A stretch of 63,088 bases of DNA, counting the filler, from Asterionella formosa (taxonomy: Eukaryota): the NCBI GenBank assembly GCA_002256025.1. It is 29 parts of 29 records of this genome, joined end to end, with 100 filler letters (N's around TTAATTAATTAA, not from the genome) between each part and the next. Parts side by side here need not be neighbours in the genome. Positions count along the whole stretch, not along the records: positions 41,436 to 43,512 come from NKIB01000484.1; 28 more parts are not named here. One strand, given 5' to 3'. The notes beneath the pieces are model-generated. The model made no database searches, was not told the origin of the DNA, and saw nothing but the letters and a program-made list of their open reading frames with translations. The position numbers and the translations under genes were made by a program. Below are positions 6,456 through 46,242 of this stretch, one piece after another (the first letter of the stretch is position 1; each line of letters starts with the position of its first letter).

Positions 6456-6713
6456 NNNNNNNNNNNNNNNNNNNNNNNNNNNNNNNNNNNNNNNNNNNNT
6501 TAATTAATTAANNNNNNNNNNNNNNNNNNNNNNNNNNNNNNNNNNNNNNNNNNNNATGTGAACGATTACAAGATAGATCAAATAAGCTCACAATAAGGTG
6601 GGATTAGAACAGAAGGTTTTAATTCACTGAGCTTGTCTAGAAAGAGCAAGCATTGCAGTCAGACTGCAGAAGAATTCAACACGCTTGCAAGCAGATCAAC
6701 TTCGTTTTGCAAC

Positions 6714-8642
6714 ATGACTGAAGAAAAAGGTGAGACCATTCGCCTTGTGAAGTTTGATGGCGAGGACGCCAATTGGCATGAGTGGAGTGTGAAGACACTT
6801 GCACTAGCCAAGACAAGAGGATTCAAGAATGCCTACATGAAGGATACCAATCCATGCAGCGATGCTGTCTACGAAATCACACACAAAGACGATGTCAAGA
6901 AGATCTACGAGATGAACGATCGCGCATACCAGCTCCTGATTATGAGTTGCACTGGGATTGCGCTTGGTTTGGTTCACCAAGCCAAGACAAAGAATCATCA
7001 AGACGGCGATGCATTCCTTGCTTGGACCTACCTCAAGGCTCGCTATGTTCCTAATGCTACAAGCGACTTAATAATCCAACTGTCAGGACAGTTCAACAAG
7101 TGCATCTGTGAGGGGAAGACGCAAGACCCAGATGAGTGGTTCATCCAACTCGAGTTGTTGAGGAATCGAATGGCGACGATTGATTCTGCTTACGAAAAGA
7201 AGGATCTCGAGATGATTGCCCACATACTTGACAAACTACCTAAGGAGTACTCAGAAGTGGTAACAATGGTTGAGGCTATGCCCTCCCTAACACTTGAAGA
7301 CCTTAAGGCCAAGATACGTGCGTTCTTCAAATGCAAGTTTAAGAACGAAAAGTCGGATGGCGAACTTGCTCTTGCTGCCTTTGGAACTAAGTTCAAAGGA
7401 CTCTGCCGCTCTTGCGGCAAGCAAGGACACAAGGCAGCCGATTGTCAAGTCAAGAACAAGGGCACACGGTGACGGAAACAGGCCTCCTCCGAAAGGCATC
7501 AAGTGTTTCAATTGCAACAAGCATGCCGGACATATCGCAAAAGATTGCCCTGAACCCAAATGAGAACGTACTACAACGAAAGAGACCGGCATGTTTGTTG
7601 GCATGTGAACGGCTGACTACAAAGACATCGAAGCAAACGAAAAGAAACAAGATATGAATGACAAGTACAACGAGAACGACGATAAAGAGTGGACTTTTGT
7701 CGGTATTTGCGAGGAAATTATTGATGATTGTGATGTAAAATTTAATAATGAAGAGTTTTGTGCCTCTGCTGTTGCTCCTCGCTCTATTGCCCTACAGGAG
7801 AATTGGCTCGCTGATACTGGAGCTACCGCCCATATCACAATGAGTGATGTCGGTATGACAAATGTACGCCCAGTCAGTGTCACAGTTGTTGTCGGCGATG
7901 GCTCGGAAACTAAATGTACAAAACGCGGTGACATCAAGCTCACCAATGGAGAGAAGACTATGACATTGAAGGATGTCCTGTACACGCCTAAGCTTCACAA
8001 GAACATCATCAGTTTGGGCGTCCTAATCCGTGACGGTTTTGACCTTTCAGTCACAGGGTCTACAATGACAGTTAAGAAAGGTCGTGGAGGACATATTTCA
8101 TTTAACAGAGAGACCTATGGAGTTCTCTATTATTTTAAAGGAAATCGCGCGAGTTATGCCGATGTCGTATCCATGGTTATTGCCCAATTGTCCCAGGGGG
8201 CCGAAAGTACCAACAACTTGTCTACAAACACCCATACAGTTATGAGTGGGGAGGACAAAATGAAGTCACAGGATATCAACGAGGCACACGATATCTACGG
8301 GCATATTGGGGAAGCCGCACTACGTGCTACGTTCAAAGCACTGAAGATAGAACTTTCTGGTATCCTCCGGTAATGTGACGGATGCTCTAAGGCAAAGGCG
8401 AAAGCAAAGGCAGTTTCAAAAGTGTCGACTGTACAGGCTGTACTACCCGGTGAACGGATTTTCGTGGACACTTCAGGGCCGTACAAAAAGTCCATTGTGG
8501 GAAGCAATTACTGGATACTTGTGGTTGATCAATTCTCTGGAAAGTCATGGAGTTTTTTTGTTAAGAAGAAGAATTTACTATCCAAAATTGTGGACGAGCT
8601 ACTTATCAAGCTATTTGCAGCAAAATATGTCATCAAGTATCT
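6714..8642 (+). mobile_element. Ty1/copia gag-pol, degenerate (gag, two zinc knuckles, protease, GAG-pre-integrase, start of integrase)
   Basis: CRSCGKQGHKAADC, CFNCNKHAGHIAKDC, WLADTGATAH, HDIYGH...CDGC, RIFVDTSGP. Frameshift near 7470; stops at 7561 and 8371. Confidence 0.92.
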
Positions 8643-8742
8643 NNNNNNNNNNNNNNNNNNNNNNNNNNNNNNNNNNNNNNNNNNNNTTAATTAATTAANN
8701 NNNNNNNNNNNNNNNNNNNNNNNNNNNNNNNNNNNNNNNNNN

Positions 8743-11400: not shown

Positions 11401-13008
11401 ATGTCATACACAAGTGGAAAATTTGCAGCTCAAGCAAAACAGGTTGCAGCAGACGATAAGGCTGGTTGTCCGGAAAACACCATTCTTGCCTATAGAAGAA
11501 AAATGGCAGAATTCCTTGATTTTTCTGTCATGCCTTTCCATCCAACAAGGTGGTGGATGGCATCCCATCTACAACAGTGACAGAAGAAAAGTTCTTTGGC
11601 TTTCTATGGTATCAATCAAGACGTCATCAGCAACCCAGAGGATGACCAGGTCAATGTAAACCTTTGGAAGAAAAATTTTCAAAGGATGATTATAAATCTG
11701 TAATTTCCAACATTGATTGGATTTTAGACAAGCTATTTGGATATAGTGTACTCAATCAATATCGATCAGCCATCCTAGATTTGCATGCACAGCAATGGGA
11801 TGGAGGATGCAACAACATACCCAAGGAAGTACTAATGTCTGGCCGTGTCAAAAGATTACTGAAGACAGTAAAAATGAGAAAGACACAAATTGCGAAAAGC
11901 AATTTTGATGAAAAATTGACAAGTGAATTCACGCCATACACTGCTGCTCAAGATATACCAAGACTTGAAGATTTTTTCTTTTAAAAAAATTTGTTATCAT
12001 CCATTTATTCAGTGGCATCTTTACATGATCAATATTGTCTTTTGATGACAACAAATGGGATCTTAAGAGGCAAATCACTCTTTGAGTGCGAACTTAGCGA
12101 TATTTGTTCCTTGTTACACAAGGATAAAAATAGTCTAGAGGATATTTTAAGTCATGTGATGCGCATTGCTGCTGGGAAAACAAATGGTTTAAAGACTCTT
12201 TATGAACGTTGTATTTGACATCGTAATGTCAATGAGTGTGCTATTGGTGCTCTTGGATTTTATTTAACGACAAGATTTATGCAGAGTGGAGAAGCATAAT
12301 CATTTGATTTTACTTCAAACAAAGCCTGGTTCAATATTAAGCTGTTGACAGATTCTTGGGGCTTCGACAACACTATTTCAGTAACTGATCAGCATATGCG
12401 AGTAACATGAAGAATGCTTGCAGACACCTTGGCATTATTTCAAAACATTTCGTGCATTTTGGTCGATCAGCTGGTTCAGTCAAAGCAGAATTGGATGAAC
12501 TTGATGGCTGTAACATCAATGACCTTGGAAATTTGAAAATGGATACTCGACGTGATGTTTATTCAGCTAAACTGCCAATGAAAGCCATGCGTGTTATGGC
12601 TGACCATCCAGATGAAAACGGAAGTGTTTTTTTGCCACGAGATCATATAAAACATCAAACCTTCAATGACCCTGCAACAAATAATCCTTCCATTTATTGA
12701 AAAAGAAATTGAATCTATTGATGCAGCTACCAATTCTACCGCCTTTGCTTTTCTTAATTTGCTCTCTTGCCTCCGTGTCGTCATTCTGCAAGATGCAGCA
12801 ACAATGATATTGAATGGTCGGGGTCATTTTTTGTTCACATTGGATGTGTTTAACTGTGAAGAGTTCAAAGAATTTTTAAATAATATGAGTCATCATCTGA
12901 ATTTGGTTCAGGATCCAGTGGATCTTAGAATTGACTCTATTTTACCTGGTGTCAGAGATCGATTTACAAATTTGCATTCTGAAATGAGAGCAAACTTTTC
13001 ACAGTTGA
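11401..13008 (+). mobile_element. Crypton-type tyrosine recombinase (Ndc10/CryptonF-like lineage), pseudogenised
   Basis: PENTILAY..KMAEFLDF, TVTEEKFFGFLWYQ, NQYRSAILDLH..Q, GILRG.SLFECELSD, GKTNGLK, HFGRSAG...LGN, YSAKLP. Many stops and frameshifts. Confidence 0.8.
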
Positions 13009-13289
13009 NNNNNNNNNNNNNNNNNNNNNNNNNNNNNNNNNNNNNNNNNNNNTTAATTAATTAANNNNNNNNNNNNNNNNNNNNNNNNNNNNNNNNNNNN
13101 NNNNNNNNCAGGTAGGTACTCAGGTACCATGGAACCTGGTAGCTGGTACAACCTAAAACTGAGAGTCAACATTTAAAAACTCCTTCCGACTAAAATTATC
13201 GAAGTTTCTTAAATTTTAATTCGAAACAAGTACGAACTTTTTTGTAGTTGATAGAACGGGGATAGCTATCATTTAGTCATTTTGCATGA

Positions 13290-18515: not shown

Positions 18516-19289
18516 TTATATATATAACATGCATAAGGCCGTTGCTAACGGTGGACGAAAACGCAAACCAAACAGTGTTTTGGTTTGGATGTTTGCAAAC
18601 ATTGTATGTTCCAATGGGTATCTAGCTTGTTGTTGCAGAAGACCTTTCATCCGATCACAAGTGCATGCAGCAGATTGACTCAGACCAAACAATGCATTTC
18701 CCACAATTGAATTGTTAATCAAATCTTCTGATAAAGCCAGTTTTGCTGCTTCTACTGATGCATCCTCAACTTTCAGCTGGCCTCTGCTTCCAATGGAGCA
18801 ATCAATTGACATATCAGAAGAACGACTGAAACTTCGTTCTTCTGCAACCAATTCTCTAGCTGATGCACGGCCTGCTGATTCTTTCTTGCCATTCTCAAAG
18901 ACACAATCCTTTGTTAGCAAGAGAATAGACTTGAAGTCATCTCTAGCAAATGGTCCAAACAATTTGAATCCAATCCAGCCATGAAAATAATAATCCACAG
19001 GCATCCCAACATCATCATTCAATGCCACCGCAGCACCCAAGATTTCCTCCTCCTCCTCATCATCCACATCATTAGCTGGATCGCTGTAGCTGGTTCGACC
19101 CTTCAGATATCGAAACATATGGTTTAATACATGGTTGTCATAGTCTTCAACATTGTTCCCGGAAGGCAAAGTCCCATCAGGGAGTAAAAATTGCGACCCA
19201 AATGCTAAGGCCTTCTTCCAATTCAGCAGGGCATGCTGAGCCATCTTCAATAGAGTTCGACCAGTAATTAAAGTGGACATATTTTTCAT
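18516..19289 (-). CDS. Hypothetical protein, possibly a transposon accessory ORF
   Basis: 257-aa ORF with LPSG, an acidic tract and a YYFHGWIGFKLFGP motif. No recognisable catalytic domain. Confidence 0.4.
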   Translation of the reverse strand: MKNMSTLITGRTLLKMAQHALLNWKKALAFGSQFLLPDGTLPSGNNVEDYDNHVLNHMFRYLKGRTSYSDPANDVDDEEEEEILGAAVALNDDVGMPVDYYFHGWIGFKLFGPFARDDFKSILLLTKDCVFENGKKESAGRASARELVAEERSFSRSSDMSIDCSIGSRGQLKVEDASVEAAKLALSEDLINNSIVGNALFGLSQSAACTCDRMKGLLQQQARYPLEHTMFANIQTKTLFGLRFRPPLATALCMLYI

Positions 19290-21832
19290 TCCAGTGCCTG
19301 CAAGAGATCTTGGGAGAAAGAGAGCTCTTGGCTGGAAGGGGTGCTGGCACCATGATCAAGGATGCTGATTGTTGGCAATTGACAGATGTTGTTATGTTCT
19401 TGTTGTTGTTGTGTACCTGGTAATATGCACTTGGAATATATATTTACGACTCTATATTATATATACATACTGGTGTGTAGTTGGATGACAACAAGACAGC
19501 AGCATCGCTCAAATTGCGGGAAAAACTAACTAATTCCCAAATAGGAATGATANNNNNNNNNNNNNNNNNNNNNNNNNNNNNNNNNNNNNNNNNNNNTTAA
19601 TTAATTAANNNNNNNNNNNNNNNNNNNNNNNNNNNNNNNNNNNNNNNNNNNNATTTATTTTGCTGAATCGTGCTATGAATTCCAGATGTCTTGTAGTACC
19701 AGTAAAGAACTGCTGTGACCCGCCCACTGAAATCTCCTATTCGTCTGATTAGTTCGACTAAACCTATTCCATGCCTTGCGAGAATCAAACTTCAAGGTCT
19801 TGTTAACTAAAGGAGTCAGCAGGTTGTGGATCTGTCGATATTCTCTTAGAAGGTCGAGGTTCTGTGATACGACCCCTTTTATGTCAACAAAATTTTCCGA
19901 TAATGGGTCACAGCCGTACTAAAATTTTTATGTATAATTGTATATAATTTTATATACCATTACGATCACGGATTACCCTGTTTGGTTTTCGCAAAATAAT
20001 TTTTAAGAATTTTCGTATCCAGATGTACCAGGGTACCTGTTACCATCGGTACATCATAATCACACACAAATACATTCAGCCACCGATACCGGTATGTGCC
20101 GGTATCGGTACACACTTTCTTTGTATTGTTGTATGGGGGCTGATGGTATGTAGGTCGACGTTGGCGCGCCCGATTATACATGCTCAAGTTACTTCAGCAA
20201 TATCAGGGAATAGGGATAGGTTTATGACAAGAATCAATTGCAAAATAAATCGCATGCGACATTTTTGTATATAGTTGCGTATATGACAAAACAATGAATC
20301 CTCAAAACATGGGGTAATCCGTGTTCTGGCAATATTTTCGTCGATTGCACTTTTCAACCAATATTTTAGGGGAGACAAATTGCTATAAACTTGTATCTAA
20401 TTGCATATCCTTAAAGCGTACATGGTCAAGATTTGGGTCGAAGTTTTAAAATTAACTTATTGGCATTTGGTGGGGTCAAACCGTGTTTTTCTCCTGTTCA
20501 GTGGGTCACAGCGGTTCCAATTTTTTTTAGTGGGTCACAGCAGTTTTTTACTGGTACTATTTATGATAAAATGTGTCGCTGTCCGGTAACAAGTTGTCCG
20601 TTTCAGGAAAATGACCGCAGCTTGCAGGCAAGGCAACCAGATGCGGTCATTTTGCTTAAATAAACAATTTGATCTGGGATAAAGACAGCTGATGCAGATG
20701 CTCAAGATGTTTGATTATATACATGTATAAATAAATATATAGAACGGTATGTGTTTTGATGGTCTGTGGCGGTTAGAAATATGTATCTTGTATGAAGTTT
20801 TTCCCTATTTCCCCTCACACAGTGTATGCAGGATTCGCATGTATAGGGTTTACGTCATCCTCTCCCACCATGGTGAGCGAATGTTTGAATTTGCGATTTT
20901 TCAGCACTGCCCTTTCAAGATATGTCCGGAGTAGCGCTGAAAACGGTACGGTAGGTAGCTTTGGACTACCGGTACGCATAAATATTTTACGACCACATCT
21001 AAGGAAGAATGCATGGTGTTGTATAACAATATATTCCTACTACAATTCGGTGGGCACTACACTACCGGTAATCATGAATCATGCTTACCGTACTTAGCAT
21101 CAGCAGAGGATTGTTGCAACATACCTCTGGTGGAGTCATTCTATGGTCCACAGATTGCTAAGTATAATACATTTACGACTTCATACGACATCTTGAATAC
21201 CGGTACCTACCGGTATATGGACAAAATGTAAGAAAGGAAATGCTTCGATACTAAACATATGAAGAAACAGTTCAAAGTAAAAGTACCGGTATCCTGAGAG
21301 ACTGACTGACTGACTTGCTTTCATTATGATTCATCATCTCAAGCATGTTGAAACATGCATGACAAGATACTTTATGACTACTACTAATAAATGATTCTTA
21401 CCGGTAGTCTAGTGCTAAGAACACATTTACATACAAGTTTTACACGTGATGCAACACTTTCTTTGTTCCAGATAGCACTCATTTTGTTTCGATGGTAGTC
21501 GTCCACATCTGTCTCATAATCTTGAAATCCTCTCTCCCCCGCAAAGCAACAACAAGGACCACCAGATTGAACAGCACGAGACCATATAACAATGACAACC
21601 AATGATACCAACACAGGTAATATGGATGAGTGCCATTTGAAGGAAGCGCCAGTTGTGACAGCAGGCAGTACCAAGGTCGCGGATTCGACTACGCCATGGC
21701 CATTGCAAGGAATCGGAGAACCTCACGAGAATNNNNNNNNNNNNNNNNNNNNNNNNNNNNNNNNNNNNNNNNNNNNTTAATTAATTAANNNNNNNNNNNN
21801 NNNNNNNNNNNNNNNNNNNNNNNNNNNNNNNN

Positions 21833-23911
21833 GCATGATCACCACGCCAGTGCTCGATATTTTGTTGAAATCCTTCCAGTACATCCACTTGAAAGCCATC
21901 ACTTTCAAGAAGTCTTGGAGGAACCAGAACACCAACGAGTACAGCCAAACAAAAAAGAACAGCCCTACGTTGTGAGAAAGTCCTTCAACGGCGACACCAT
22001 CAATTTCCCCAGTAGGCCAAAATAGAGCAAGAATCGAGGAGAGGCCCAAAGCAAAGCAACAACCGCCAAAAAGCATCGGTGCTGGTTTCACACTCCAGAA
22101 GTAATCACGTCCTGTACGTGAACTGAACAATGTGAGAAAGTCAGATACGGAAACCTTCAAGTAAATTGCAGTTGTAACCTGCCCGTATTGCAATGGGTTC
22201 ATTCCAACTGCAGCAAAAAAACCTTTCGGGTCCCAGCTGTTCAACAAGAAACTGAGGAGCAGCAATGACGAACCACATGACACTGCGCCTAACGTAGAAC
22301 TGGTCAAGAAAATGGCAGGGAGATTCCATCGGTTGGGGGTTGTGCTGGCAGTCGCGTAGTCATAGGCAATTGAGATCAAAGTACCATCATTCAAAAGGGT
22401 GATCAACATGAGCATGATAACCGGCATCTTGAAAAATGCAGGCCACTCTTGACCAACCATGATATCGGCTTCCGCTGGCGCAAAGTCCGCTGGATGAAAC
22501 GCAAAGATGGCAATAAAGAAGAAAAATAGCAACTGGAGTGTGGCAGCGATCCGGTATGTGATAAAGTTACTCATTCGTGTAAAGATTTCTCGAGCAATCA
22601 AAATTCCATGAATAATAGTTCCGAGACCCGGTTCGGTGAGAACAATATCAGCTGCAGCACGAGCGGCGTCCGTGGCACCAGCGACAGCGATTCCGATATC
22701 AGCTCGCTTAAGGGCAGGTGCATCATTGACTCCATCACCAGTCATTCCAACTGTGTAGTGCAACTCACGAAGGCATTCAACAATCAAGTATTTGTGTTCA
22801 GGGTAAACCTGGGCAAATCCATCAGCAGCGAGGCAAAGGTCACCGTAATTTTTGCCGAGGTTAGCAGGTTTCTCCTTGGTTTCCGGATCAAGCATGGGAA
22901 GTCTTTCAGAGGTAAAAATTCGGTCGCCCATTTCAAGCTGGGCAGCTGTGTTTCGAGCAATCAGCAAGTGATCTCCAGTAATCATCTTCACTTGAATACC
23001 GTAATCGTGTGCATCCGAAATAGTCTGTTTAGTGTCTGGACGAGGAGGGTCAAGAAACGTCAACAAGCCAATCATTTTCCAAACGCCATTGACGGTTCGA
23101 CCAACAGCTAGAGATCGAATTCCACGTTCACCAAGACGAGCAACATCCTTTTCGACAGCCTCGACAGTTGCAGTTTCAGAGGAATCCAATAACTTCAAAA
23201 TGACGTGCGGAGCCCCTTTAGTGGTCTTGTATTCCTCGCCTGTCTTGTTATTTTTCACTGTTCCTTCGGTACGCTTGATCTGAGGATCAAAAGGTAGGTA
23301 ATCAAGCTGCTCGTAATCGTCAAGGAGAGGCATGTTGACTGAACCAAGTGTGAGGCGATCAAGAGCATCACGGGCGGGCTCCTTCCATTTTGCTGCCATG
23401 GCAGCATAAACAAGCACGGATTCCTGATTCTCTCCTTCGTAATAAATAGGAGTTTCATCTTGCAACACCATTGTATTTAGAGTAAGCGTCCCAGTCTTGT
23501 CAGAGCACAGAATTGACATACCCGCCAGGTCTTCAATGGCGGACAATTTGGCAACGATAGCACCATGCTTGACAAGGTTTTTCGAACCAATCGCCAAAGT
23601 GGTTGTGGTGACAATCTCGATGGCAAGGGGAATGGATGCTACCAAAAGGACAACGGAAAACGAGAGAGCTTCTTCGGTAGTTTCGCCTTTTTTGATTAAG
23701 TAGATAAAGACGATGATGACACATGTCAAGGAAAGGCTCACCAAAACAAACATGATCTTCATGAGGATGATCTGGAGATGGCTGAGCTCGTGTGTGTTCT
23801 TCAACAAACTAGCAGTCTTTCCAAAGAATGTATCAGCGCCTGTGAACTCGACTGTGCCTTCCACCTCTCCGCGGACGACAGTCGATCCCATCTTACAGGA
23901 ATCTCCCTTGT
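21833..23911 (-). CDS. Plasma-membrane H+-ATPase (P3A), internal part, variant 1
   Basis: ASIPLA, CSDKTGTLT phosphorylation site, KGAP, DPPR, MITGD, TGDGVNDAPALK, TLLNDGT. Confidence 0.95.
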
Positions 23912-24011: not shown

Positions 24012-26090
24012 GCATGATCACCACGCCAGTGCTCGATATTTTGTTGAAATCCTTCCAGTACATCCACTTGAAAGCCATCACTTTCAAGAAGTCTTGGAGG
24101 AACCAGAACACCAACGAGTACAGCCAAACAAAAAAGAAAAGCCCAACGTTGTGAGAAAGTCCTTCAACGGCGACACCATCAATTTCCCCAGTAGGCCAAA
24201 ATAGAGCAAGAATCGAGGAGAGGCCCAAAGCAAAGCAACAACCGCCAAAAAGCATTGGTGCTGGTTTTACACTCCAGAAGTAATCACGTCCTGTACGTGC
24301 ACTGAACAATGTGAGAAAGTCAGATACGGAAACTTTCAAGTAAATCGCAGTTGTAACCTGTCCGTATTGCAATGGGTTCATTCCAACAGAACCAAAAAAG
24401 CCGTTTGGGTCCCAGCTGTTCAACAAGAAACTGAGGAGCAGCAATGACGAACCACAGGACACTGCACCCAATGTAGAACTGGTCAAGAAAATGGCTGGGA
24501 GATTCCATCGGTTGGGGGTTGTACTAGCCGTGGCGTAGTCATAGGCAATTGAGATCAAAGTACCATCATTCAAAAGGGTGATCAACATGAGCATGATAAC
24601 CGGCATCTTGAAAAAGGCAGGCCACTCTTGACCAATAAGGATTTCGTCTGCCGGAGGGGCAAAGTCCACGGGATGAAAGGTGAAGATAGCGATGAAGAAG
24701 AAAAATAACAGCTGGAGCGTGGCAGCAATCCGGTAAGTGATGAAGTTGCTCATCCGAGTGAAGATCTCTCGCGCTATCAAAATTCCATGAATAATAGTTC
24801 CGAGACCGGGTTCGGTGAGAACAATATCAGCTGCAGCACGAGCGGCATCCGTGGCACCAGCGACAGCGATTCCGATATCAGCACGCTTAAGGGCAGGTGC
24901 GTCATTGACTCCATCACCAGTCATTCCAACTGTGTAGTGCAACTCACGGAGGCATTCAACAATCAAATATTTGTGTTCAGGGTAAACCTGGGCAAAACCA
25001 TCAGCAGCGAGGCAAAGGTCGCCATAATTTTTGCCGAGGTTAGCAGGTTTCTCCTTGGTTTCTGGATCAAGCATGGGAAGTCTTTCAGCGGTAAAAATTC
25101 GGTCGCCCATTTCAAGCTGGGCGGCTGTGTTTCGAGCAATCAGCAAGTGATCTCCAGTAATCATCTTCACTTGAATACCGTAATGGTGTGCATCCGAAAT
25201 GGTCTGTTTAGTGTCTGGACGAGGAGGGTCAAGAAACGTCAACAAGCCAATCATCTTCCAAACACCATTGAAGGTCCGACCAACAGCTAGAGATCGAATT
25301 CCACATTCACCAAGACGAGCAACATCCTTTTCGACAGCCTCGAGAGTTGCAGTTTCAGAGGAATCCAATAACTTCATAATGACGTGCGGAGCTCCTTTAG
25401 TGGTCTTAAATTCCTCGCCTGTCTTGGTGTTTTTCACTGTTCCTTCGGTACGCTTGATCTGAGGATCAAAAGGCAGGTAATCAAGCTGCTCGTAATCGTC
25501 AAGGAGAGGCATGTTCACTGAACCAAGTGTGAGGCGATCAAGAGCATCACGGGCGGGTTCCTTCCACTTTGCTGCCATGGCAGCATAAACAAGCACGGAT
25601 TCCTGATTCTCTCCTTCATAATAAATAGGAGTATCATCTTGCAACACCATTGTATTAAGAGTTAGCGTCCCAGTCTTGTCCGAGCACAGAATCGACATGC
25701 CTGCCAGGTCTTCAATGGCGGACAATTTGGCAACGATAGCACCATGCTTGACAAGGTCTTTCGAACCAATCGCCAAAGTGGTTGTGGTGACAATCTCGAT
25801 GGCAAGGGGAATGGATGCTACCAAAAGGACAACGGTAAACGAGAGAGCTTCTTTGGTAGTTTCGCCTTTTTTGATTAAGTAGATAAAGACGATGATGACA
25901 CATGTCAAGGAAAGGCCCACCAAAACAAACATGATCTTCATGAGGATGATCTGGAGATGGCTAAGCTCGTGTGTGTTCTTCAACAAACTAGCAGTCTTTC
26001 CAAAGAATGTATCAGCGCCTGTGAACTCGACTGTGCCTTCCACCTCTCCGCGGACGACAGTCGATCCCATCTTACAGGAATCTCCCTTGT
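24012..26090 (-). CDS. Plasma-membrane H+-ATPase (P3A), internal part, variant 2
   Basis: Same motifs and same 2079-bp length as variant 1. The first and last 127 bp are identical to variant 1. Confidence 0.95.
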
Positions 26091-34500: not shown

Positions 34501-34634
34501 ATAGTCATTCAGCTCAGGCGTTCCTTGTCCGAAATTGCTCGTCAGAAATAAAAGATATTTGATCCGGCATACCGTAGGCCTCGGTAGTCTTCTACTGAGG
34601 AAAGAAAATACCTCCAAGGTATTGGCAAATATTT

Positions 34635-34803
34635 ACGTGGTCAGTATGAGGTATGTAACAGCTCAAAATTCTACCGTGTAGAATTTTTGGTAGAATTTTT
34701 TCACTCGTTTGGGTAGCATCTTCTACCTCATCATAATAACTAGGTTAGGGTTAACAGTGATATTTTCCAGGGCGAAAATTCTACCCATTGTATTGTTATC
34801 AAC
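34635..34803 (+). mobile_element. Putative Crypton 5' subterminal region (second copy)
   Basis: Collinear with 42388-42540 upstream of the Crypton ORF, with the same TTCTACC/GGTAGAA inverted motifs. Confidence 0.6.
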
Positions 34804-41435: not shown

Positions 41436-41865
41436 ATAGGTCCATGTCACACAGCTTGCTCTAGGAACCAACAAACCAACAATCAAGCAGGTATTGTGGA
41501 CAAACAAGCAAACATGGATGTGGATCCTGATAATGAAAGTAACCTTCCAAGACACCAAAACTATATTTGTTGTTTGGTAAGAATGGGAAGTTGGAATCAC
41601 CGAACAAAAAACCAGGAAGGCTTCTATTTACAAGCAGCAGGGAGACAGGGAGCAGGATGAGGAAATATGCATCTACTATTGGCAGCGCAAGGTTGTCTGG
41701 GATGCAGTGGCAACTCTAGCTAGTTTGAGTGGTTACATGGCACATGTAGTCCTGTATTAAATCTATGAGACATATGGTCAGGATAAGATTGTTACTCACA
41801 TTCTCGTCAACCAAATGTTGAAAGGTTGCAGTGGTGGTGGGCATCCACAACTACAGCCGTGTTAA
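41436..41865 (+). mobile_element. Degenerate 3' end of a Crypton (CryptonS-type C-terminal, GCR1_C-like domain)
   Basis: KTIFVVW*EWEVGI...YYWQRKVVWDAVATL..SGYMAHVVLY*IYETYGQDKIVTHIL..M....GGHPQL. Confidence 0.7.
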
Positions 41866-42593
41866 GCTAGATAAATGCGTATACTACTAAATAATAACAT
41901 AAATACTTACTATATGAAATTCAAATTTCATTTTCAATGTACTGTACCTTGTTATTTCATTGCCTGCTTCTTACCTGGTATAAACACCAGACCAGTTGAA
42001 TCAGCAGTACACACAACGAAGCTAGCAAAATCCGGCAACACCAGGTGCTGGCACCTGGAACATACCGTGGTACCAGCTACCGGTACCTGGTACCAGGGTA
42101 CTTCATGCATTGTAACAGCATCGCCCCTGGTACCAGGTACCAGGTACAAGCAACGGTGGCACCGCCCACTCACACACAGTGCATGCTTTGTACGTGCATC
42201 ATGATAGTTAACTAGTGCACTAGCTTTCACAACGACAAAAAAAAGTACCGGTAGTATTGGGGGTAGAATTAATTGTCAATACTGGCACATTATTGACGAA
42301 ATTCTACCAAAGTAGTATTTTTCTGCAGGGCTCCGGTAGTGTTCTACTCTGGACAGGTCAATACTGTCCGGTACCCCTCCCTTGCTTGACCGTGGTGAAA
42401 ATATGGTATAGACAAAGGCAAAAATTCTACCCAGTAGTACTGGGGGTAGAATTTTTTTTCACATTTTGGTAGAATATTCTACCAACGGACCAATGGAACC
42501 CTGCAGTATGCCATGGTATTTTCCAAGAAATTCTACCACGATACAACATGGTATGAAATGGGATTGAAGTAAAAAATTAAACTAAATATCAAC

Positions 42594-43612: not shown

Positions 43613-45370
43613 GCGGATTTTGCGTAGGGTCCGCTAATATCAATAAACAGTCTTTCTCCTGGTGTCGTAGCCTTCTCTTGCGTCATCTTGGGTACTGCGC
43701 GTGCTTTCGCCTTGGCTGCTGCGCATCCTGCGCACACCTTTAATTTTCCCACAAGTTTCCACCCAAATAATTTCGATGTCTCCTCACGAAGACATTTTTC
43801 TCCCACATGTCCAAGCATTTCATGCGCTTCATTTATTTCCACAATCACATCATTATTTTCGTTAGCGTTTCTTTTCTCGATCGTTTCACTAATCGCTTTT
43901 GTCGTCTTCTACTTTCGTCCATTCACTCTTGTCTTCTTTAGTATCATAGTCGATAGATTGTTGTGTTGGCTTCTCGCTTTCTTGTTCAACCTCCAACACC
44001 GTTTCCTTTAGAATAGGCGTTCCTTGCACATGGTACATTGCACCAATTGTCCTCGTTTCATCACGTTTGCAGATCAAAAATCCGTTGTTGTTTCTGATCG
44101 TCATCTTATCATCGTCAAACATAACTTTATTTTCCTTGTCAATAATTCTCGAAATGCTGATAATGTTCTGCTTGAACTCCGGTGCATAGAGCACATTGGT
44201 GAGTTTCAACACTTTTCCTTTGTCTGTCGTCGTAAGGGTCACCGTACCTGATATGGTCGCAACAATTGCTGCTCCGTTTCCAACAAGTACTGTTTCACGC
44301 ACTGTGCGCTTGTCCTCCATGATGCGCTCGTCATTGCATATATGTACCGTAGCACCACTGTCTAGTAGCTAACAGTCCTTATGCATGCATGTATGATTTA
44401 CCTCTTCATTATACCTTGCCTCACTACACGTCACCACGAACATTCCTTGCATAGTGGTATTGGCGTCTTCTCCCTTCTGCTTGATTGGTGCAGTTTGTTG
44501 ATTGTTGCCCTCACTGGCATAGTGCCCCATCTTCTGGCAATTATAACACTTCACATTCTTTCTCTTACTTTGTTGCTTGGGAGTTAATTCTTTCTTTTCT
44601 GTAGTATTGCCCTGGCTTCGGCAATCAACTGCCTTGTGACCATACTTGCCACACTTCCTGCAGTCTCCCTTAAACTTGCTCTTTGAAAAGAAGGCCTGCT
44701 CGCCATTCTTATTCGTCTTGTTTTCGTCACGCACATACAAATCGTTATAGTTGCGTACATTCTTCATAACCTCTTGGATCGTGAGCTCGGAGCTCGCGAG
44801 ACCAAAATTTTCAACCACCAAACTCTTGTAGACTTCCGGTAGGTTGTTGATAACATGGGCCACATAGGCACCATCCGAAATTGCGGAGCTCGTACAGATC
44901 AATCGTTCTCGAATTCTATCCAACTCCTCAAACCAAATGTTGGGGTTCTCACTCTCGTTAATCGTCTATTTTGTCCATTGACCTGACAATGCAATCACAT
45001 TTGCCATATTACTTGACTCGTACGGAGACACTAACTTGTCCCACGCTTCCTTCGCATTTCCACTGGGGAAATCATCACTTCTGGCACCATTTACTTATCC
45101 AAATGGTCCACTCTGACATGCCATAATCAAACTTGCATAGGCAACCATATTATTTCGTTTCGCACGCTTCTCATTGTTATCACTTGGGACAATCTTCATT
45201 CCAGCTGAATCTCTGCTCTCACCTGGTGATACTTCATCTCCACTTAGGATTCCTTCAAAAACTTTGTAGCAGGCGTAGGCCACAAACTTCGCTTTCCAAA
45301 CATGACACTTGGCATCGGAACCATCAAATGTTGGCAACTGCACTCCTGGCGATTCGTCATCAATTCCCAT
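43613..45370 (-). mobile_element. Ty1/copia gag-pol, degenerate
   Basis: LPTFDG..WKAKF, CRKCGKYGHKAVDC, CYNCQKMGHY, *LLDSGATVH, HEMLGH...CAGC, RLFIDISGP. Same architecture as 6714-8642. Confidence 0.9.
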
Positions 45371-46242
45371 CTTGAGTAGTACCACCCTTTCAAACCTATC
45401 CGCTTTAAAGCATGTTGAAATGGTCCGTACTCCTTCCTGCAGGCTGGGTCTCTCTTCACGTAGACTCTTACGTGCTCGTAGTACTACCTAGTACCACTTT
45501 CTTTCTCTCTTGTCTCTGCTTCTAGCCTTCCTGCTAGATAGACTAATTGACCTTGCTGTCACTTAACACACTGTTTCCTCGGTTGATAATCTAAAACTCA
45601 AATTAAATTATAAGCTAAACTAAATGTTTCCTTTCCATGCATCTTTGCTTCCTGCAAAGTCGTTCTAAGACTCTCTTCGAGTTTCCACTNNNNNNNNNNN
45701 NNNNNNNNNNNNNNNNNNNNNNNNNNNNNNNNNTTAATTAATTAANNNNNNNNNNNNNNNNNNNNNNNNNNNNNNNNNNNNNNNNNNNNCTTTGTCCCAA
45801 CACACAGCAAGTCAGCATTCACTAACATGTTCTTGGCAAATAATACATTGTGTGCAGGTGCTAACACGGAAATGACCAATTTGGCAAAAGAATTGAATTG
45901 AAATCGAATTGGAGAGTGTACCAAAAGGGGAAATTAGCAGAGGATAAAGCCCATCATCAAGGCTGATCAGCATCAGCGAGTTTTCGTTGTGCTTGATAGT
46001 GGCAGTTAAGATGGAACCATCACTCAATCAACTATTTCGTACTGACTTGTTTGGTGCTGTTGTTTTTCCAAGCTTCAAAAGATGCACATGGCACTCACTC
46101 AATTCAATTATGAAAATTTCGATTAGTCTTGAACAATTACGTGTAGAAGGGAGAAATCACTCGATGATCAACCAATATCATAAGTCCAACCACCAAAACA
46201 TTGGGTGTAACTGCCTTTCTTGTAATGTTGCAGGAACCATGA

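Follow-up and report, generated by a model that had tools for sequence, protein, structure and literature searches.

On which DNA sites does the recombinase of a Crypton act, and where in them are strands exchanged? A 2026 review states that the transposition mechanism of Cryptons has not yet been shown experimentally (PMC13565253), and only terminal direct repeats of 4–6 bp are described for these elements in the available text of PMC3212892. The question is raised by a locus of Asterionella formosa (assembly GCA_002256025.1) at which a cluster of inverted repeats (42253–42540) precedes a tyrosine recombinase ORF. The original prediction read these repeats as lox-like recombination sites of an intact Crypton recombinase, with accessory binding sites as a fallback, and pointed to a homolog with conserved spacing at 34635–34803.

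The locus and its surroundings

The window, i.e., the whole stretch of DNA that was analysed (63,088 nucleotides), consists of 29 contigs, each about 2.08 kb long, with N linkers between them. The repeat cluster and the start of the ORF both lie within one contig (41436–43512), and the cluster and its homolog are not neighbours. The features are collected in Table 1. Sequencing runs containing the stretch are mostly freshwater metagenomes, so the host is probably an alga of fresh water. In contigs of four runs aligned to this contig a circle and a tandem look alike, and these contigs give no measure of expression; presence of the stretch in an RNA library is no proof of transcription. Other contigs of the window carry two near-identical P-type ATPase sequences with the same cut points (21833–23911 and 24012–26090), probably alleles or paralogs that were separated in assembly, a 279-aa open frame without Pfam match (18516–19355, minus strand), and broken copia-like gag-protease-integrase frames read from motifs (6597–8694 and 43613–45689). 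Broken ORF pieces at 12389–13010, also on another contig, match NDC10_II (E 8e-7) and probably belong to a different Crypton lineage.

Table 1. Positions of the element copies, the core site, the half-site array and the recombinase ORF in the window.
Feature	Position	Strand	Remarks
Older decayed copy A' of family A, 3' part and right end	41436–42289	+	Young copy follows head to tail
Right-end pair of reverse half-sites, in tandem with a 12-bp period	42250–42270	-	TAC of the core arm is 9 bp away
Left core arm GTCAATAC, part of the upstream copy's right end	42275–42282	+	Constant at family A right ends
7-bp spacer TGGCACA	42283–42289	+	Last three bases, ACA (42287–42289), are the only ones that element and targets share; putative crossover
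Right core arm TTATTGAC, first bases of the left end of the young copy	42290–42297	+	Left-end matches
Left-end-proximal inverted half-site pair, 4-bp gap	42300–42319		10 bp from the spacer; same place in A–D
Internal core-like site (arm, 6–7 bp, GTA)	42357–42374	+	A–D alignment; filled and empty versions
Triad: forward 42423, degenerate reverse 42434, reverse 42446	42420–42456		Equals the 13-bp inverted repeat
20-bp palindrome of two back-to-back half-sites	42466–42485		Perfect
Last forward half-site	42529–42537	+	One base further on, the match of a gene-less family A lineage ends
Tyrosine recombinase ORF, 5' 306 codons	42594–43512	+	Includes R176, H293 and R296; stops at the contig end
5'-truncated left region of a subfamily B copy, same array	34573–34803	+	Triad at 34667–34697

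The recombinase and the class of the element

Contrary to the original prediction, the window does not show an intact recombinase: the contig stops after 306 aa of the ORF, short of the catalytic Trp and Tyr. The identical 306 aa occur in seven contigs that all end at one place, as would be expected if the assembly broke in a young repeat. The metagenome contig L262 carries an unbroken ORF of 706 aa, identical to the window ORF at 304 of 306 aa over the common part, in which R-H-R-W-Y are all present. Among 60 aligned proteins the first R never varies, and conservation of H, R, W and Y is at least 90%. The modelled structure of the 650-aa protein of subfamily D (pLDDT 84) matches Cre, Flp and Xer, with a Z of 15.4, an rmsd of 3.7 and 225 aligned residues for Flp, as expected of the YR fold. 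The YR regions of the four subfamilies are 64–69% identical to that of A.

Against GCR1_C, for which the Pfam cut-off is 23, the C-terminus of D scored 23.8 bits and that of A 21.7 bits, and GCR1_C is precomputed for many homologs. A single-sequence model of this C-terminal domain (pLDDT 64) gave no clear fold when compared with 48,161 chains (best Z 6.1, rmsd 3.3, 62 aligned). A Pfam scan of the 306-aa ORF of the window returned nothing below E 0.068, and NDC10_II had no match in the protein of the family. NDC10_II is a mark of CryptonF. Complete family A copies measure 2.65–2.73 kb, with space for one ORF and with no RT or DDE transposase. Terminal inverted repeats are absent; only the 7–9 bp core arms and the half-sites are inverted between the ends.

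By these sequence features, in which the testable characters of Cryptons were found, the element is Crypton-type and may belong to group F or S. CryptonS and CryptonF, in the available text of PMC3212892, likewise have a single tyrosine recombinase ORF, a length of about 2.7 kb, no long terminal inverted repeats, a short near-direct terminal repeat that matches the target, and gene-less derivatives. CryptonF combines YR with GCR1_C (PMC3212892), and the present family also has YR with a C-terminal GCR1_C, at marginal scores. CryptonS is said to be without GCR1_C, whereas the family has a weak one; the 2011 definition used older models (PMC3212892). CryptonS termini are TATGG in the majority, or else 5–6 bp repeats (PMC3212892); those of family A are not TATGG, and its ACATTA/ACAGTA form a repeat that agrees at 5/6 positions.

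Element ends and end-to-end joins

The left end of the young family A copy is at 42287. In 9/30 loci fetched with the protein the match to the window starts at precisely this base, in a further 2/30 it starts within 9 bases of it, and the remaining loci are partial or come from other subfamilies. Searches with patterns of the right and left ends of family A gave 54 and 58 matches in the genome, respectively, with 0 matches for each reversed control; up to 30 loci were fetched for each pattern. The mapping of the element ends is solid.

The sequence before 42290 belongs to the older copy. Its segment 41462–41854 has 73–75% identity with the 3' coding end of copies of family A, and 42177–42289 matches their right end. 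The segment 42275–42297 is the right end of this decayed copy joined to the left end of the young copy, and the order across 42262–42308 is half-site, GTCAATAC, TGGCACA, TTATTGAC, half-site. A pair of inverted repeats claimed there does exist, as 9-bp arms 29 bp apart; it is not one cis-site and spans the junction of a right end with a left end. The order A'-then-A was also found in L262, which comes from an independent assembly. Further end-to-end joins occur in L001, L002, L038, L040 and L350, in subfamily C (L178, L180, L222 and L151), and in metagenome relatives (L258 and L261). In the literature, an extrachromosomal circle as intermediate of Cryptons has the status of a proposal. The join in the window most likely arose by integration of the young copy into the right junction of the older one; such a junction is a perfect target in its own right. 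The join was also considered as the circle of a single element, a reading that was dropped since the copy upstream is another element and a decayed one.

In L092, L093, L249, L362 and L363 the ends of two subfamilies are only a few bases apart, either as a C right end before a B left end or as a B right end before an A or A-like left end. The pattern suggests that Crypton-type subfamilies may target one another's junctions. A right end of subfamily D was looked for and not found, and the similarity among the D copies L145, L143 and L141 continues over at least 900 bp beyond the stop codon; D is therefore longer and may carry extra sequence.

Target sites and inheritance of the spacer

Insertions of family A sit in TAC-N4-ACA-GTA. 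Junctions were counted after end-to-end joins had been removed and near-identical flanks collapsed. Among 26 left junctions of family A, TAC stands seven bases out in 19 and ACA is present in 23; the first four spacer bases form 22 different words, and the spacer of the element occurs in none (0/26). The 27 right junctions carry TGGCACA (21), TAGCACA (4) or another spacer (2), followed by GTA in 23/27; AGGGACA and CTGCACA are the odd right spacers. A right spacer TGTGCCA, without the ACA triplet, occurs in L043, L056 and L058 and is hidden by the collapsing of flanks; all three of these right ends lie inside the internal site of D.

Subfamily C has TAC at 19/28 and CCG at 22/28 left junctions, with the element spacer at 1/28, and both GTTCCCG and GTA at 19/20 right junctions. 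In subfamily B, ATA was found at 14/14, TAC at 9/14 and the element spacer at 2/14 left junctions; its right junctions (n = 29) are much noisier than those of A, with CTATATA in 16 and RTA in 15. Left ends of subfamily D have CTG in 7/8. The triplet is thus ACA in A, ATA in B, CCG in C and CTG in D, and in the junction sequences each spacer remains with its left arm. The spacer length of 7 bp is read from the TAC...GTA dyad, not from mapped cuts.

Filled and empty sites could be compared for one family A copy (L118). A repeated host flank gave 31 matches, and of the 12 loci fetched two contained family A and 10 were empty. The complete copy in L118 has the host spacer on its left and TGGCACA on its right, followed by the sequence that follows the spacer in the empty paralogs L333, L335, L339 and L341. 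ACA stands at both ends of family A, and there is no true target duplication in this comparison. All four subfamilies retain the internal core-like site, which lies about 70 bp in from the left end, and insertions of family A, in either orientation, occur in its C and D versions (L026, L003, L036 and L268).

Proposed strand exchange at the core site

It seems rather probable that this 2.7-kb Crypton-type element moves by way of a core site with exchange of one strand pair, together with an accessory array bound by its own protein. The core site would consist of two short arms (minimal dyad TAC...GTA) around the 7-bp spacer, and the joined element ends would pair with a host TAC-NNNN-ACA-GTA. 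The crossover would fall at the right edge of the spacer, where three bases (ACA) match. By the established chemistry of tyrosine recombinases, with which the available text of PMC2817482 agrees, the bottom strand is cut at the right spacer edge, and ligation needs 2–3 matching bases there. The recombinase would exchange the bottom-strand pair only, at this edge, and the second exchange would be blocked because four spacer bases are unmatched. A single exchange would give the left arm, its own spacer and the right arm of the partner, as seen at both junctions. The Holliday junction would then be resolved by replication or by a separate resolvase; the sequence fits both equally, and strongly biased repair is also compatible with it. 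Excision would use the same edge and so keep the element's own spacer constant.

Exchange of both strand pairs at the same core site in the style of IntDOT or Tn916, with tolerance of mismatches and a strong strand bias in repair or segregation of the heteroduplex spacer, or with both cuts inside the three matching bases, is rather unlikely. IntDOT does complete both exchanges over a 7-bp overlap with 2 matching bases (PMC2817482, as far as its available text goes), and the odd right spacers, few in A and many in B, are possible captured host spacers. However, a second exchange at the left edge followed by unbiased segregation would place the element spacer in about half of the left junctions, and the counts of 0/26 (A) and 1/28 (C) argue for exchange of one pair. 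Cuts within the triplet are at odds with the TAC/GTA dyad, which is centred on seven bases and not on the triplet.

The half-site array

The perfect 13-bp arms with their 11-bp spacer and the perfect 20-bp palindrome were present as predicted. Both are built from one half-site, which reads AATTCTAC in A and B, AATTAAAC in C and AATTCAAC in D. The 13-bp inverted repeat represents the outer two half-sites of a triad, and the third lies in the 13-nt gap, in degenerate form at 42434 (GTAGTACT) and as an exact copy in the homolog (GTAGAATT); the gap is therefore no free lox-type spacer. The homolog retains the half-sites and the 13-nt gap, and it also has the second palindrome, although in degenerate form (GGTAGCATCTTCTACC, 34711–34727), and a last site at 34777–34785. 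The homolog is a copy of the sister subfamily B (about 65% aa identity); its left terminus is lost, and its contig carries no ORF.

In all, about ten half-site copies stand in fixed order and spacing near both ends of the element. The left ends of A–D share one order of 8-bp half-sites, consisting of the inverted pair, the triad, the back-to-back pair and the last forward copy. The heptamer TTCTACC occurs 7 times (both strands) in 42253–42540, and in 1000 dinucleotide shuffles no 7-mer of at least three kinds of letter rose above 4 occurrences. The half-site core is CT in A and B, AA in C and CA in D, and the switch is concerted at most sites; exact counts in A/B/C/D are 6/6/0/0 for ATTCTAC, 1/0/6/0 for ATTAAAC and 0/0/0/4 for ATTCAAC.

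The right-end half-site pair recurs at identical spacing in subfamilies B and C and, in a count without shuffle control, in 8/34 metagenome relatives examined. A pattern of the end geometry (TAC-like, 7 bases, 10 bases, half-site pair) was present in 18/48 metagenome relatives against 0.39 expected from shuffles; it was composed after the matches had been seen, and one of the 18 is family A itself. The other 30/48 are without the pattern in the available stretch. These 48 of 80 loci were chosen for their upstream sequence, with some near-duplicates dropped and some kept. A stricter half-site-pair pattern gave 16/48 against 0.9 expected, about four of the 16 being without end context. In the upstream sequences of 68 metagenome relatives, exact 8-mers were for the most part no more over-represented than expected by chance.

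Gene-less copies also retain the array. In three gene-less lineages the match to the autonomous left end stops 0–1 base past a half-site. These lineages comprise 9/31 A copies, 8/18 B copies and 21/33 C rows, each standing for one founding event; in family A the 9/31 left-end copies diverge at 42538 into one common sequence.

The repeats at 42420–42485 are probably accessory sites for the protein of the element, and the fallback of the original prediction has become their best reading, as candidate binding sites. The array would be bound by the element's own protein, most likely through its C-terminal GCR1_C-like domain, and would build an end-pairing complex in the manner of the arm-type sites of lambda Int; binding would perhaps also repress the promoter of the element. 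A role in end pairing is favoured because right-end sites exist and gene-less copies retain the array, and autoregulation may come on top. The GCR1_C helix offers a hint that this domain may read the array motif. It is KFIYYRRK in A and B, which also have one motif, KVQYC in C and KCLYC in D. In several branches of relatives, Y-H in the helix goes with xCAC and Y-C with xAAC, and Y-S and Y-Y do not predict the base; motif labels in this comparison were assigned by eye, and the relatives with Y-H may form a single clade. No general code from helix residue to base could be established among the relatives.

It is improbable that the internal array is an autoregulatory operator or promoter module only, used by the element protein or a host factor without any end pairing. 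Most sites do fall within 300 bp upstream of the ATG, and the annotation of GCR1_C is that of a transcription-factor domain, but the right end has two sites as well, at a distance of 9 bp from the core and remote from any promoter, and gene-less lineages retain the array up to a site boundary. A host factor would also leave the concerted change of motif between subfamilies in one genome unexplained.

A lox-like role in crossover or resolution, as first proposed, is very improbable for both the 13-11-13 repeat and the 20-bp palindrome. The arms are perfect over 13 bp, and a second, res-like site could leave no boundaries; nevertheless, no cluster of element ends occurs inside 42420–42485, and the boundaries map to 42287–42289, in a site of TAC, 7 bp and arm that places the crossover 130 bp from its earlier position. 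Sites of the lox/FRT type have a spacer of 6–8 bp that contains the crossover. At 42420–42456 the spacer is 11 bp, is occupied by the third half-site and coincides with no boundaries, and the half-site gaps of the array are 3, 4 or 15 bp or a 2-bp overlap, never 6–8 bp. That the cluster comes from an unrelated MITE, or the junction from assembly, is hardly credible: the assembly is fragmented, and L042 and L047 have the same upstream copy with other endings, so that the join could be an assembly-graph path, but among the 50 matches listed of 62 genome-wide matches to the inverted repeat all are in Crypton-type left ends (34 A and 14 B by spacer, by eye, the other 2 checked separately), the same join exists in L262, joins also occur in subfamily C, and the core-site conclusions rest on host junctions rather than on this join.

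Comparison with known systems

The following comparisons refer to the available portions of the papers cited. CryptonF-1_cRei of Chlamydomonas is like family A in having a terminal motif that matches the target and a clean empty site (PMC9977147). It differs in its motif (CACCG, with the target CAYCG), and activity has been observed there and is inferred for family A. Its copy number rises despite observed excision (PMC9977147), and the available text gives no core or accessory sites for it.

Integration of VGJ-phi and CTX-phi by XerCD proceeds as proposed here, with homology on one side of the central region, one strand-exchange pair, and resolution of the junction by replication or repair; excision of VGJ-phi uses the same side and XerC (PMC4246890). 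These are bacterial phages that use two host recombinases at dif, so the likeness is one of working only. In contrast, family A would use one element-encoded enzyme on many degenerate targets in a eukaryote. SEs are like family A in that the spacer of the circle junction goes to attR and that of the target to attL (PMC10214605). They need four proteins, and their left spacer is copied into the circle, so that the footprint changes with each move, whereas the right spacer of family A is constant (PMC10214605). IntDOT and lambda Int share with family A a 7-bp overlap, a short match at one edge and separate arm-type sites (PMC2817482). IntDOT differs in that both exchanges are completed and in its variable coupling sequences. 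IntDOT and lambda Int bind the arms with an N-terminal domain (PMC2817482); the candidate domain of family A is C-terminal.

Supplement 1 of PMC3212892 lists the repeats CAGTAT, TTGRTA and AGGTAG/AGWTAT, and on the other strand TAACTA/TACCTA and TATGG. Taken from the table without flanks, these can be read as 2–3 bases followed by RTA or TTA, like ACA-GTA and ACA-TTA. More tentatively, this Crypton lineage may represent a eukaryotic counterpart of the copy-type integration of VGJ-phi and SEs, in which a recombinase of two specificities (core arms, and arrays read by GCR1_C) would exchange one pair at a 3-base match and leave resolution to replication or a resolvase. Triplet and array motif would then change independently and provide natural orthogonal enzyme-site pairs, and the published 5–6 bp repeats of Cryptons would consist of the final 2–3 bases of the spacer and the right-arm RTA. 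In the available Crypton literature, a body that extends neither to the original 2003 paper nor to the Repbase reports, no account of the dyad, of one-sided spacer inheritance or of the array was found.

Significance

Overall, the locus contains a real and well-defined cis apparatus of a known transposon class, to which one-pair exchange and binding by GCR1_C are added by inference. The family supplies an intact 706-aa enzyme, a joined-end site, a target consensus, and a prediction of the strand and the position of the cut, and its sister subfamilies, with other triplets and array motifs, are built-in controls of specificity. One-pair exchange with replicative resolution, if true, would account for clean excision plus gain of copies as in Chlamydomonas (PMC9977147, available text). 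Arm-type sites read by GCR1_C, if true, would provide an ancestral role for a domain that was later domesticated in yeast Gcr1, Hot1 and Msn1. In addition, a eukaryotic integrase that is compact and has a loose TAC-N4-triplet-GTA target could serve as a tool.
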